Shown: one piece after another, positions 3,190-35,292 of the stretch
Layout of the letters: each line of letters starts with the position of its first letter
Position numbering within the stretch: position 1 is the first letter of the stretch
Assembly (NCBI GenBank): GCA_048882325.1
Contig: JBHLRS010000013.1
Location: 25,375-89,374, forward strand
Direction: 5' to 3'
Source of the DNA: Candidatus Thorarchaeota archaeon
GTDB taxonomy: Archaea; Asgardarchaeota; Thorarchaeia; Thorarchaeales; Thorarchaeaceae
DNA: 64,000 nucleotides
Program-made: the position numbers and the translations under genes
Notes under the pieces: model-generated
Seen by the model: the letters and a program-made list of their open reading frames with translations, nothing else
What the model was told of the DNA's origin: nothing
Databases searched by the model: none

Positions 3190-4047
3190 TTAATCTTCCT
3201 GAAACTCAAGCAGATCCTCATCAAACTCCTCATCATCATCATCAGATTCAGTTTCTTCAGGTAGCGCGTCAATGAGTTCATCAATCACACGACGTAGTCT
3301 CCTACGAGTGCTCTTGGGAACATCCCACATTTTTTGTTCAGCTCGTTCCAAAACCTCTCGTGCAATATCATAGATTTCAGAGTCATAGTAGTTCTGTGCG
3401 GCTTCCACAAAGAGTTCAGCTGCTTTTTTCTGGTTCCCTGCAGTTTCTGCAATATCACCTAGGAGTGAACAAGCATCAGCGACTCCAGATTTATCATCAA
3501 TCTCTCGATAGACCTTTAGAGCCTTCTTGATTGTGGTTTCAGCAGTTGTCCAATCCTCTTTATCAACGTAGGCAGCGCCCATGTCCATAATCACACTTGC
3601 CACACCTTGTTCATTTTCAAGTGATTTGTATGCTTTTTGGGCTTTCTTGAAGTGATCCATGGCAGTATCAAAACTGCCATGTCCTAGACTTGCCAATGCA
3701 AGACCATACAAGGCATCAGCTGCACCGCTGTCGTTGGATGACTTCTCAAACATCTTTCTTGCTGACTCAAGTGTGGAAATGGCTTCATCCCATTGTTCAA
3801 GATTAATCTGTGCGACCCCAAGGTTGTACATTGTGTCACAAATACCAGTTTCATCCTTCAAATCCTGATAGATCTTTAATGAGTCCTCGAAGCACTTGTG
3901 AGCCTCCTCAAATTCAGCGACTGACATGTAGATGTTTCCAACAGCATTGAACATCTTTGCAGCAGTATCATTGTCTCCAGCCTCTAGTGCGGCTTGTGCC
4001 TGTTCCAATAACTCAGCCGGGTCCATGTCTTCGATGTCATCACTCAT
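3190..4047 (-). CDS. Tetratricopeptide repeat protein with acidic C-tail
   Basis: Repeated TPR-like helices (e.g. YNLGVAQINLEQWDEAI). Start set to ATG 4047 after GGTGA. Confidence 0.85.
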   Translation of the reverse strand: MSDDIEDMDPAELLEQAQAALEAGDNDTAAKMFNAVGNIYMSVAEFEEAHKCFEDSLKIYQDLKDETGICDTMYNLGVAQINLEQWDEAISTLESARKMFEKSSNDSGAADALYGLALASLGHGSFDTAMDHFKKAQKAYKSLENEQGVASVIMDMGAAYVDKEDWTTAETTIKKALKVYREIDDKSGVADACSLLGDIAETAGNQKKAAELFVEAAQNYYDSEIYDIAREVLERAEQKMWDVPKSTRRRLRRVIDELIDALPEETESDDDDEEFDEDLLEFQED

Positions 4048-4169
4048 TTGGCTCACCTGCAAATATCAACGGTGGCGGCCTATATCGCTTTTGATTCTTT
4101 CTGAACGACTCAAACGATGTAGACGTGTACATAAGTAAAGCGCGGATTCAAGAAAACTAATTTGAAATA

Positions 4170-4910
4170 TTAGCGAGGCATCAGCAAAACTGGATTCTCG
4201 AGTAGTGGGCGTACTGCATCCTTCACCATAAACTGTTCATCACCCACTTGAACCTCTAGGAGTTTTCTAAGTTCAAACCTGCGAAGATATCCGACAGCTT
4301 GGTCTCGTTCTAAGTTAAGATCCTTCATCATCTTGCTTAGCCCTTTCTTGTCACCACTGAATTCAGCGAATTTTCCAAAGACTGAACTCCATTGCATCAT
4401 TACTAGATACAGCAATGTACGAAGCATGCTGTCAACATTTTCACCAGTCTTTGCTGATACAGGGAAGACTGGGAGTCCTGCAAGAAACCGAAGGTTCTTT
4501 CTTAGTTGGTCAATTGGTCTTGACTCAGGAATATCTTGCTTGTTTGCGGCCACTACACATGGCACACCAGGTAGGAAGAATGCAATCTCCCTGAAGAATA
4601 GCTTTGCTCTAGCATCAGATTCAGGGTCAACTGAATCTACTACAAAGATTATACCATCAGCTCCTTCACTGAGAATCTTTCTCATTGTGCGAAAACGAAG
4701 TAGACCCGGGGTTCCAAACATAAAGACGTTTAACCCATCTACATTTGCTAGACCGTGATCCATAGCTATTGTAGTACCCCTACGTTCAACATTGATACAT
4801 TGGCCATTGGTGATATGATGAATCATCTGGCTCTTACCAGCTTCATAGGGACCTGTAACGACTATCTTCATTCGACCACCAAATTCTAACTCCGAATCAG
4901 TGTGTTTCAA
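4170..4910 (-). CDS. MglA/CvnD-like small GTPase with C-terminal helical/wHTH extension
   Basis: GPYEAGKS P-loop, TTIAMDHG, FGTPG, NKQD, SAK motifs. Confidence 0.85.
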   Translation of the reverse strand: MKHTDSELEFGGRMKIVVTGPYEAGKSQMIHHITNGQCINVERRGTTIAMDHGLANVDGLNVFMFGTPGLLRFRTMRKILSEGADGIIFVVDSVDPESDARAKLFFREIAFFLPGVPCVVAANKQDIPESRPIDQLRKNLRFLAGLPVFPVSAKTGENVDSMLRTLLYLVMMQWSSVFGKFAEFSGDKKGLSKMMKDLNLERDQAVGYLRRFELRKLLEVQVGDEQFMVKDAVRPLLENPVLLMPR

Positions 4911-5034
4911 GTATTCTGCTGCTCATTATAAGGTTTGTAGTGCTATTATCGGTCTAACAACTTCCGGCGCCACAATGCATGTTTCAGACACTAATTTCAT
5001 TGAATTGCGCAATTTGAGAGAACAGAGTAGGATG

Positions 5035-5113
5035 GAGACCGGCCGCTCGCAACGGCAGTCCTCAAACTCGGGCCCCAGTGGGATTTCCAATGTCATCATG
5101 GGAACTCGGTCTC
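5035..5113 (-). promoter_or_regulatory. Eukaryote/Loki-type SECIS element overlapping the selD stop codon
   Basis: Minus strand GAGACCG AGUUC cc AUGA UGACAUUGG AAA UCCC acu GGGG CCCGAGUU UGA GGACU GCCGU ugcga GCGGC CGGUCUC. Contains AUGA/GA core, ~9-bp upper stem, unpaired AAA, apical ministem and closing helices. Confidence 0.8.
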
Positions 5114-6130
5114 AATGAACTGAACATCCTGTGCAAGTTTTGCAGAGGGTGATCCATTAGATTTCACGACTTTGCCTACAGGCCAACAAGGCAGATTCTT
5201 CTCCTCAAGTGTGTTGCAGAACTCCTCGACCTTTGTGGAATCGAGGAACACAAGCATGCCACCGGCGGTTTCAGCACCAAGTCCAGTCGCGAGCTTATGA
5301 CCAAAGAACTCTGCAAGCTCGAGTGTGCCACGAATAACAGGAATCCGCTCAATGACCACACTGACATCACTAAGAGAACAGACATTCCCAGCATGACCGA
5401 GAAGGCCAAACCCTGTGACGTCCGTAGCAGCATTTACCTCAACTGCTCTCATCGTTTCAGCAACCTCCAGATTACTGAAGGTCATTAGTCTAACAGCAAC
5501 ATCTTGTATTCGTTTTAGGTCACTCTCTTTGAACTTGGACAAGAGCACATCACGCTTCTCATCTTTGAGGTCTCTATATGATCTCATCGCTGGTTGAATA
5601 CCCAATGGTTTAGTCAGAAGAACTGCATCACCTGGTTTGGCTCCATGTGAATAGACGACTTCACTAGGGTGTGCAGAACCCAGAGCTATTCCACCAAACA
5701 CGGGAACTGGATTCCTGATTGTCTGACCACCAGCGAGCTTCGCATCATGCCTTTCCATAAAGGTCTTCATACCTTCGAGGACACCTACAACAATATTTTC
5801 AGGTAGTTCTATGGGATAAGCAAGAAAAGCCTGAAGCGAGAGAAGTTTCGTGACACCCATAGCAAAGATATCATTGGTCGCATTGCACGCGACAATCTCT
5901 CCCTGTATCTGAGGGTCATCATGTATCGGTGTGAAGATATCCACATTTTCTACAATAGCCACATCATCGTTGACGATACGGACCACAGCATCGTCCCCGA
6001 TTTCCTCGGTTACGCATTCACCTAACGGAAGAAGACCAGCGGTCTGTAGAAGACGAGTGAGATCATCCTGGTTGACCTTGCAGCTTCAGCCATGAGAAGT
6101 TACCATTGCAGTCAACCGCACTTCATGCAC
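5096..6130 (-). CDS. selD: Selenide, water dikinase SelD, selenocysteine-containing (UGA at 6086-6088)
   Basis: The track ORF extends upstream in frame through TGA to give MHEVRLTAMVTSHG-U-SCKV...IGDDA. SelD motifs present: NATNDIFAMG, GGQT, LTKPLG, TDVTGFGLLGH, ETAGG. Start is GTG 6130 or TTG 6142, with GGAGG upstream. Confidence 0.95.
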
Positions 6131-6282
6131 CTGGTGACTCAACCTCCTGCATCCTTTAAGGCAAGTTAGCCCAACTCACAACTGGAGGTAGCCAGTAATA
6201 AGATTCTGGGTCAAGCTCACTTCACAAGCCTTATAGCCAGTGTCACGAAGCGATGCGCTATTCTAAGAGAGAGTGATTCGAG

Positions 6283-7728
6283 TTGGATATCAAGAAGGTC
6301 TCGGAAAACATTCATGAAATTCCAAAGAGCACACAAGCGTGCATGAAGGTCCCTGTAAAGGTGTTTGCTTCTGACAAACTCGTGCAGAAGATGCGTCAGG
6401 ACAAGACCTTCACTCAGGCAACTAATGCAGCTTGCTTGCCTGGAATCTATAAACATAGCATTGTATTGCCGGACGGACATCAAGGCTATGGATTCCCCAT
6501 TGGTGGTGTTGCAGCTACAGATTATGATTCAGGCGTGATTTCTCCAGGGGGAGTTGGATATGACATCAACTGCGGTGTTCGGGTATTACGGACTAATCTG
6601 GATGAAAGCGATGTCAGACCGAAGATCAGAGACCTTATCGACAGGCTCTTCGAAGAGGTTCCTACCGGTGTGGGTAAGCAGGGTAAAATAGACCTACGCA
6701 ACCACAGCGGTGTAGATGAGGTTCTAGCAAATGGGGCAACATGGGCTGTGGAACAGGGCTATGGATGGGATGAAGACCTGGACCATCAAGAGGCCAACGG
6801 CAGGCTCGAAATCGCAAATCCTTCTGATGTTCCAGACTCTGCAAAGAATCGAGGCATCAAGCAGAGTGGTACCCTTGGTTCGGGCAATCACTTTCTTGAG
6901 ATACAGGTCGTAGATGATATCTACGACGAAGAAGCTGCAAAACGTATGGGTATAACAAGAAAGAAACAGATCATGGTAATGATTCATAGTGGGTCTCGCG
7001 GTCTCGGACATCAAGTGTGCTCTGAATACATCAAGACGATGACCCAAGCTATGAGAAAGTACAACATAGAACTTCCAGATAGAGAACTATGCAGCGCACC
7101 CACTACGTCACCAGAGGGACAGGCTTATCTCGGAGCCATGAGCGCAGCAGCAAACTACGCTTTTGCGAATAGACAGGTCATGATGCACTGGACAAGAGAG
7201 GTATTTGGAAAGGTTCTAGGTAGTACACCAGAAGACCTGGATATGGGTCTGATTTATGACGTTGCTCACAATATGGGCAAAATCGAGGAGCACGAGATAG
7301 ATGGCAAGAAAACCAAGGTTGTTGTCCACAGAAAGGGTGCTACTCGAGCATTTCCACCGGGACACCCAGATGTGCCTACGAAATATCGAGATATCGGACA
7401 ACCGGTGATTATCCCCGGAACCATGGGTACAGCATCGTACATCCTTATCGGAAACGAGAGAGGGATGGACTTGACGTGGGGGTCAACTGCGCATGGGGCT
7501 GGTCGCTTCATGAGCCGATCGAAAGCCAAGAAACGTTTCTTTGGAAAAGAAGTTCAACAGGATCTTGCTTCCGAGGGGATTCTTGTGAGGGCAACCAAGG
7601 GTATCGTAATAGCAGAGGAAGCCCCGGGTGCATACAAAGATGTTGATGAAGTTGTGAAAGTGTCTGATGCAGTTGGAATTGCTACAAAGGCTGTCAGACT
7701 ACGACCTATCGGTGTTATCAAAGGTTGA
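6283..7728 (+). CDS. rtcB: tRNA-splicing ligase RtcB
   Basis: LPDGHQGYGFPIGGV, GYDINCGVR, GNHFLE, HSGSRG, HNM, HGAGR motifs. Confidence 0.97.
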   Translation: MDIKKVSENIHEIPKSTQACMKVPVKVFASDKLVQKMRQDKTFTQATNAACLPGIYKHSIVLPDGHQGYGFPIGGVAATDYDSGVISPGGVGYDINCGVRVLRTNLDESDVRPKIRDLIDRLFEEVPTGVGKQGKIDLRNHSGVDEVLANGATWAVEQGYGWDEDLDHQEANGRLEIANPSDVPDSAKNRGIKQSGTLGSGNHFLEIQVVDDIYDEEAAKRMGITRKKQIMVMIHSGSRGLGHQVCSEYIKTMTQAMRKYNIELPDRELCSAPTTSPEGQAYLGAMSAAANYAFANRQVMMHWTREVFGKVLGSTPEDLDMGLIYDVAHNMGKIEEHEIDGKKTKVVVHRKGATRAFPPGHPDVPTKYRDIGQPVIIPGTMGTASYILIGNERGMDLTWGSTAHGAGRFMSRSKAKKRFFGKEVQQDLASEGILVRATKGIVIAEEAPGAYKDVDEVVKVSDAVGIATKAVRLRPIGVIKG

Positions 7729-34547: not shown

Positions 34548-35292
34548 TACGGGTTAGCTCTCCTAGCTCCATCTTATATTGGTGGACATTCGATTGATTG
34601 ATTATTCCCTCGTCATGAGTCATAACAATCACAGCCTTTCCTTGTTTGTTCAAATCACGAAGCAGGTCTCGAATCATTTGTCCACTTTCACCATCAAGAT
34701 TGGCTGTGGGCTCATCTGCGAGAATGATAGGAGGATCATTAGCCATAGCGCGTGCTATCGCGATTCGTTGTTGTTCGCCAGAACTGAGCTGCCACGGAAG
34801 ATGGTCAGCACGATCCTCCAACTCAACTCTCTCGAGAAGCTTCATTGCCTCTTCTCGTAACAGTGAATGACTCCGCTCATAAAGCTGCATAGGAAACATC
34901 ACATTCTCAACAGCAGTTAAGGTGGAAACTAGATTATAGCTCTGAAAGATGAAGCCTGTGTTGTTGAGTCTGAAGGATGCACGAAATGATTCATCATAGT
35001 CATTGATGGGAACATCCATGACAAACACCCGACCATTTGTTGGGAGATCTATTGCTCCGATGATATTCAGGAGAGTTGTCTTTCCAGATCCTGACCTTCC
35101 CGAGATTACGACAAAATCACCGGCATCGATAATAAGATTGACATCACGCACAGCCCCAATTGTCGTTTTCCCCAATGAGAAGGCTCTCGAAACATTCTGA
35201 AGGTCCACTGCGTGACGGACTTCTTCAAGATCTTCTGCATCCAAATCGTCCCGAGTATAGTCGACCGCATCTAGATAATCGTCATCAGCCAT
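34540..35292 (-). CDS. ABC transporter ATP-binding protein
   Basis: GRSGSGKT, LSSGEQQR, DEPTANLD; start reset to ATG 35292. Confidence 0.93.
   Translation of the reverse strand: MADDDYLDAVDYTRDDLDAEDLEEVRHAVDLQNVSRAFSLGKTTIGAVRDVNLIIDAGDFVVISGRSGSGKTTLLNIIGAIDLPTNGRVFVMDVPINDYDESFRASFRLNNTGFIFQSYNLVSTLTAVENVMFPMQLYERSHSLLREEAMKLLERVELEDRADHLPWQLSSGEQQRIAIARAMANDPPIILADEPTANLDGESGQMIRDLLRDLNKQGKAVIVMTHDEGIINQSNVHQYKMELGELTRNV

Follow-up and report, generated by a model that had tools for sequence, protein, structure and literature searches.

The selD gene model and its in-frame TGA

The window, i.e., the whole stretch of 64,000 nt that was analyzed, is part of contig C13 of a Candidatus Thorarchaeota genome (Asgard archaea, class Thorarchaeia) of 3.6 Mb with a completeness of 93%. 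On its minus strand the window contains a selenophosphate synthetase gene, selD, with an in-frame TGA near the 5' end:

5096 to 6130, minus strand: coding sequence of selD with 344 codons, followed by the UGA stop at 5096-5098; SelD equivalog with AIRS and AIRS_C domains
6086 to 6088, minus strand: putative Sec codon UGA in HG-U-SCK, codon 15, with the SECIS core approximately 987 nt downstream

The TGA is in frame with the ORF at 5096-5986 and with the 14 to 18 codons upstream. The codons around it (GTG CAT GAA GTG CGG TTG ACT GCA ATG GTA ACT TCT CAT GGC TGA AGC TGC AAG) give the peptide context V-H-E-V-R-L-T-A-M-V-T-S-H-G-U-S-C-K, and with TGA read as U the product starts with VHEVRLTAMVTSHG-U-SCKV. 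In the standard ORF listing selD begins at GTG 5986 and encodes 296 aa, corresponding to a loss of 48 aa compared to a start at GTG 6130 and of 52 aa compared to TTG 6142. The automatic call should be replaced by the model 5096-6130 with UGA as Sec, since gene callers cut 48 aa including the active site.

With 302 bits (cut-off 291), the read-through protein is a full-length match to NF010705, the SelD equivalog of NCBIfam, residues 5-344 being aligned to profile positions 3-344 of 345; TIGR00476 matched with 219 bits (cut-off 125). The AIR-synthase-related Pfam domains PF00586 and PF02769 were found with 53.9 and 63.5 bits, respectively. In alignments to solved structures (human SEPHS1, Leishmania SelD, Aquifex SelD, and E. 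coli SelD) the similarity begins at residue 3-4. The U is situated opposite the Cys of GCSCK in Leishmania SelD (5l16) and opposite the Thr of GTGCK in human SEPHS1, which is the known Sec/Cys position, and the SelD signature loop G-[C/U]-x-x-K is present as HG-U-SCK. A preliminary description of this DNA had placed the TGA at the catalytic Cys/Sec site of SelD, regarded the codons upstream as the SelD N-terminus, and estimated the truncation by standard gene calling at about 48 aa. All three statements are borne out by the alignment to the structures, by the profile match from position 3 onwards together with the conserved RLTAMVTSHG, and by the comparison of the 296-aa ORF to the 344 aa counted from GTG 6130.

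The same description had extended the gene over 5096-6142, of which the stop end was retained and the start was revised. In six relatives a TAA or TAG occurs between the upstream ATG/TTG and the GTG, at the fourth codon past the ATG/TTG, and the GTG matching 6130 is invariant (17 out of 17 congeners). Due to these upstream stops and the invariance of the GTG, the start was set at GTG 6130, which according to the sequence comparison is probably the start codon of selD rather than TTG 6142. Some relatives in the data set of Huang 2024 (PMC11227280) were started at the upstream ATG (MSHQV...), and where the frame is open both the ATG/TTG and the GTG start are possible.

The intergenic region between selD and rtcB (6283-7728, plus strand) is short and divergent (window positions 6131-6282). 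It contains the A/T-rich box CCTTAAAGG at 6159-6151, approximately 21-29 nt upstream of GTG 6130, and the selD mRNA could therefore be leaderless. In that case the GGAGG at 6147-6143 would have no Shine-Dalgarno role.

Conservation of the TGA and the Sec machinery

The TGA at the Sec position was found in all 30 distinct Thorarchaeia selD sequences which cover this region; another sequence, the 31st, begins after the TGA position, at a contig end. Each of the 17 full-length congeners (70-86% protein identity) has exactly one TGA, located at the Sec position, and the TGA also occurs in 13 more distinct Thorarchaeota MAG loci. It is kept in selD of two further Asgard families with 37-44% identity. 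In one of them, a low-GC Asgard family, it is present in selD of 23 out of 26 genomes, some of which carry tandem selD copies. In total, more than 50 selD genes, belonging to three Asgard families, share the TGA. The Sec codon is also spanned by Logan contigs of four runs (two studies) with TGA as the only letters, neither TGC nor TGT being found; these are contigs and not raw reads, and one run is possibly the source sample.

For the 14 codons 5' of the TGA, the comparison of 16 congeners to the window revealed 56 synonymous versus 31 non-synonymous codon differences, the latter mostly at codon 2. The predominance of synonymous differences indicates that this stretch is translated. The stop codon of selD itself is a TGA, too, and is conserved across the congeners, and thus TGA is not reassigned genome-wide.

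A 4.3 kb cluster of Sec machinery genes is located on contig C26 (30504-34743):

C26 30504 to 31208, plus strand: PSTK, KTI12 family PF08433, 119.9 bits
C26 31246 to 31332, minus strand: tRNA-Sec, Rfam RF01852 with 58.6 bits (gathering score 47), ARAGORN tRNA-SeC (tca)
C26 between tRNA-Sec and SepSecS (L003:808-1473), minus strand: ORF of 221 aa without Pfam match
C26 32055 to 33320, minus strand: SepSecS, TIGR03531 with 457.5 bits (cut-off 224.85), PF05889 with 384.9 bits
C26, ending near 34740, minus strand: EFSec, TIGR00475 with 289 bits (cut-off 242), aSelB domain III

The presence of tRNA-Sec, PSTK, SepSecS, and EFSec is in good agreement with the complete Sec system which the preliminary description had expected elsewhere in the genome. 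EFSec comprises the Pfam domains GTP_EFTU, domain 2, and aSelB_III (PF21440, 48.3 bits versus a threshold of 19). PSTK scores 149 bits against TIGR03574, which is under the cut-off of 290.5, yet it is the top match in the genome and is situated 38 nt from tRNA-Sec. The 221-aa ORF could represent a further factor of the Sec pathway.

The SECIS element at the 3' end of selD

An alignment of the 3' gene ends from 31 distinct selD sequences of Thorarchaeia revealed a SECIS element at 5035-5113. Its predicted structure, for which the evidence is comparative throughout, comprises the following parts:

5035 to 5113, minus strand: whole SECIS, a three-way junction overlapping the last six codons and the stop codon of selD, from the 31-sequence alignment
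5107 to 5113, minus strand: 5' strand of helix I, GAGACCG, located in the codons for Glu-Thr-Glu and paired with 5035-5041
5035 to 5041, minus strand: 3' strand of helix I, CGGUCUC, partner of 5107-5113
5096 to 5103, minus strand: bulged strand of the kink-turn, with the C-stem UCC (5103-5101), the bulge CAU (5100-5098), and GA (5097-5096) at the putative tandem G.A pairs
5059 to 5063, minus strand: non-bulged strand of the kink-turn, GA (5063-5062) followed by the C-stem GGA (5061-5059)
5064 to 5095, minus strand: helix II and apical part, 5095-5088 paired with 5071-5064; changes on both sides in each of the eight pairs
5042 to 5056, minus strand: side hairpin GCCGU, loop UGCGA, GCGGC, flanked by the kink-turn and the 3' strand of helix I

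Helix I is paired in 99.5% of the cells of the alignment with compensatory changes in three pairs, some of them synonymous at the codon level, and in case of the codon changes GAG to GAA, ACC to ACT, and ACC to GCC the partner changed to match. The UGA at 5098-5096, which lies within the kink-turn core AUGA, is the selD stop codon. RUGA (with A or G as first base) and the opposite GA are invariant in the 31 sequences, and the C-stem is paired in 98.9% with one compensatory change. Considered as a sequence pattern, UCC-CAU-GA opposite GA-GGA matches a kink-turn exactly, which suggests kink-turn geometry of the SECIS core. The apical part displays the type II form with an unpaired AAA at 5086-5084 and a CC/GG ministem (5081-5080 with 5075-5074), the latter being paired in 87.5%. 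Read from its sequence, helix II of the window itself contains one bulged A or two mismatches. The side hairpin is paired in 94.8% of the cells with compensatory changes in four out of five pairs. Overall, 89.2% of the cells are paired, 17 of the 25 pairs changed on both sides, and covariation was observed in all five helices. The covariation score of 0.327 compares to 0.170 for shuffles (0 out of 500 as high) and to 0.06-0.11 for slid partners.

Huang 2024 (PMC11227280) defines type II SECIS elements by the core GA_[G/A]A after A/G-U, the upper stem, the bulge, the ministem, and the place of the element. The selD element has the RUGA and GA core and an upper stem in the range of 7-15 bp with at most two mismatches and covariation, for which the copy of the window is borderline. 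The A-rich bulge is followed by a ministem in the range of 2-8 bp (AAA and CC/GG), and with 5035-5113 spanning the stop codon the element is located, as expected for this type, at or just past the 3' end of the selenoprotein gene.

When its own genome was searched with a covariance model built from the element, the sole match was 5023-5118 with 84.9 bits. In 161 kb of the low-GC Asgard family the same model gave 10 matches (E 2.5e-7 to 1.6e-3), each directly 3' of a selD stop codon, also for both members of tandem pairs, and with the same five helices, of which 88.8% of the cells are paired and 18 pairs changed on both sides; since this alignment was fitted to the model, its pairing leans towards the model. 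Read from the sequences, members of this family have a hairpin with a YGCRA-like loop at the same place. Tandem duplicates of selD are frequent in this family (L033/L091 at G032:C5:26601-28897, L083 on G063:C39, G053:C16, and G056:C51). In at least two of these pairs, those of G032 and G063, the three-way-junction SECIS occurs in a copy located 3' of a selD stop. The G053 copy at C16:19031-20005 lacks an in-frame TGA in the matched part.

The Rfam SECIS families (SECIS_1 to SECIS_5) gave no match in window positions 4000-7000 at E values of up to 10. The Rfam matches that did occur in this range, sR30 with 17 bits and GlsR4 with 16 bits, were dismissed as weak box C/D-like noise. Single-sequence folding of the selD 3' UTR by RNAfold was not better than for shuffled sequences (z of 0.9 and 0.22), and the MFE fold did not recover the structure supported by covariation. 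An RNAalifold structure from 18 sequences with two separate hairpins, in which GGACUG pairs with CGGUCU, was rejected because its six outer pairs show no compensatory change, 18 cells are unpaired, and the fold is broken in distant Thorarchaeia. A descriptor scan of the genome for RUGA...AAA...GA hairpins yielded 509 matches, mostly noise, which the selD SECIS escaped because of its bulged helix.

We conclude from these sequence comparisons, with a probability of about 95%, that the gene is a selenophosphate synthetase selD whose product is itself a selenoprotein, with UGA codon 15 encoding Sec under the direction of a type II SECIS. Sec would be inserted at codon 15, and the protein is predicted to synthesize selenophosphate with Sec at the catalytic Cys/Sec position. 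The UGA might alternatively be decoded by a near-cognate or suppressor tRNA carrying Cys or Trp, with the 3' structure serving another role, e.g., in mRNA stability. Although the Sec identity of the inserted residue is deduced from sequence and SBP2 is not known in Asgard archaea, we consider this very improbable given a genome with tRNA-Sec (anticodon TCA), PSTK, SepSecS, and EFSec, a 3' element with RUGA_GA core, AAA, and ministem as in eukaryotic type II SECIS elements, and a UGA at the known Sec/Cys site of SelD. Equally improbable is a functional SelD which begins 3' of the TGA, at GTG 5986 or elsewhere, with the upstream codons as an untranslated leader and without any recoding. This would match the output of ORF finders, but the SelD profile is aligned from position 3 onwards, and RLTAMVTSHG is kept as a peptide despite synonymous changes of the DNA. 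The short protein would also be devoid of the glycine-rich loop by which SelD is defined and which carries the catalytic Cys/Sec and Lys. An origin of the TGA from a nonsense mutation or from faulty assembly, i.e., a selD pseudogene or a mis-assembled gene, would need only one base change (TGY to TGA) and would account for the truncated ORF of standard gene calling, but is refuted by the conservation of the same TGA in three Asgard families and is further opposed by its presence in contigs of independent studies, by purifying selection on both of its flanks, and by the Sec machinery and SECIS.

Published relatives, proposed mechanism, and further loci

For Thorarchaeia, a SelD that contains Sec and has a type II SECIS is already known from Huang 2024 (ISME J, PMC11227280) and Mariotti 2016 (MBE, PMC4989117). 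In the former, more than 400 Asgard genomes were surveyed, SelD was a selenoprotein in over 90% of the Sec users, and selD of Thorarchaeia was mainly associated with type II SECIS elements, often with GUGA_GA. Apical bulges were given as [U/A][A/G]AA and lower stems as G[A/U]G_C[U/A]C. All of these features agree with the present observations, with helix I fitting the lower-stem signature as GAG_CUC. In the supplement, 19 SelD sequences of Thorarchaeia carry the shorter motif TAMVTSHGXSCK, whereas the SelD string of the window was not found there verbatim. Mariotti 2016 described a Sec-containing SPS in Lokiarchaeota and a distinct type II-like SECIS with a shorter stem, and reported that Loki genes defeat the standard SECIS tools. 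An AUGA doubling as UGA stop codon has been described for Loki VhuU.1 (PMC4989117) and for Lokiarchaeia generally (PMC11227280). In family, Sec position, and type II SECIS (AUGA/GUGA opposite GA, A-rich bulge), the published SelD of Thorarchaeia and Lokiarchaeia and that of the window agree, without an essential difference, and selD of the window is thus one more well-documented case of the eukaryote-like Sec system in Asgard archaea. Only the side hairpin, and with it the three-way junction, goes unmentioned in the main text of PMC11227280 and PMC4989117, figures apart.

Eukaryotic SEPHS2 carries Sec at the same catalytic position, and its SECIS, with an AUGA/GA kink-turn core, AAR, and a ministem, acts over a long range from the 3' end. 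With SEPHS2 the window selD shares the Sec site, the kink-turn core, the AAR motif, the ministem, and the long range. It differs in a shorter helix II (7-8 bp), in the overlap of the SECIS with the coding sequence and the stop codon, in the extra side hairpin between the core and helix I, and in lacking an Rfam SECIS match; moreover, SBP2 is not known from Asgard archaea according to the literature. Similar to SelD of the window, that of the Methanococcales is archaeal and Sec-containing, with a SECIS in the 3' UTR and the PSTK/SepSecS/aSelB pathway. The SECIS of the Methanococcales consists of a GAA_A bulge and a GC-rich upper stem, whereas the window SECIS is without these and has a eukaryote-like kink-turn core instead.

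We propose that EFSec, an elongation factor of the archaeal/eukaryotic type, would be recruited with Sec-tRNA(Sec) via the SECIS to ribosomes at the UGA approximately 987 nt upstream. In the lower helix the last selD codons pair with a stretch located about 65 nt into the 3' UTR. The terminal UGA presumably escapes recoding because a ribosome positioned on it has melted helix I and the kink-turn, i.e., the terminating ribosome has unwound the SECIS (after Mariotti 2016, PMC4989117). Every round of termination would then melt the SECIS, which would refold afterwards. Selenophosphate, the product of SelD, would feed the SepSecS step of Sec-tRNA synthesis, and since SepSecS requires selenophosphate to build Sec-tRNA, selD would need its own product. 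SBP2 was not found in Asgard archaea (PMC11227280), and the covariation-supported selD SECIS, whose kink-turn includes the stop codon, whose lower helix lies in the coding sequence, and which carries a side hairpin, could guide studies of SBP2-less recognition.

It is tempting to speculate, though rather doubtful, that the Asgard selD SECIS constitutes a distinct, gene-specific class. The hairpin with the YGCRA loop would sit between the kink-turn and the helix of the last codons, thereby making the three-way junction, and this form would be common to Thorarchaeia and the low-GC family and absent from the other selenoprotein gene of the genome. Coupling of selD translation to the selenium/Sec supply could be brought about by the side hairpin or by the melting which every terminating ribosome must cause; alternatively, the side hairpin could dock an Asgard SECIS-binding factor.

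A second selenoprotein candidate is located on the plus strand of contig C4, where an ORF of approximately 267 aa contains an in-frame TGA in C-V-E-C-I-T-U and ends at another TGA at about position 127116. At its 3' end a eukaryote-like SECIS of type I was seen (AUGA, a 9-bp stem, a GUAAAG... loop, and GA), of which the AUGA, as in selD, represents the stop codon of the gene. The element was among the matches of the descriptor scan. Provided that this candidate holds, the Sec system of this genome serves more than selD.

Among the typical selenoproteins of other Asgard archaea are HdrA and VhuD. In the genome of the window, no in-frame stops were found in the matched domains of FlpD/MvhD, NiFeSe hydrogenase, AhpC-TSA, and molybdopterin oxidoreductase. 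It contains four HdrA-MvhD (FlpD) fusions (C3:55062-55430, C6:116853-117221, C3:169039-169404, and C9:4917-5285) in genes of 721-1159 aa, and with frames read through TGA, none of the four genes revealed an in-frame TGA; they represent complete Cys forms.

In three genomes of the same genus (G001, G002, and G012), no selD orthologue was found with SelD of the window as query. The best matches there (L035-L037; G001:C15:38453-39226, G002:C64:40949-41728, and G012:C81:29419-30195) are open frames of 743-750 aa which share 36-39% identity with SelD residues 3-277 and are without stops. They may belong to the oxidoreductase/SelD-related fusion family TIGR04369.

Downstream of the SECIS, at window positions 4920-4950 on the minus strand, the block GATAATAGCACTACAAACCTTATAATGAGCA is near-identical in most congeners while its surroundings are variable. 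With its TATA-like CTTATAAT it looks like the promoter of the next gene, which encodes a small GTPase (4170-4871/4910).
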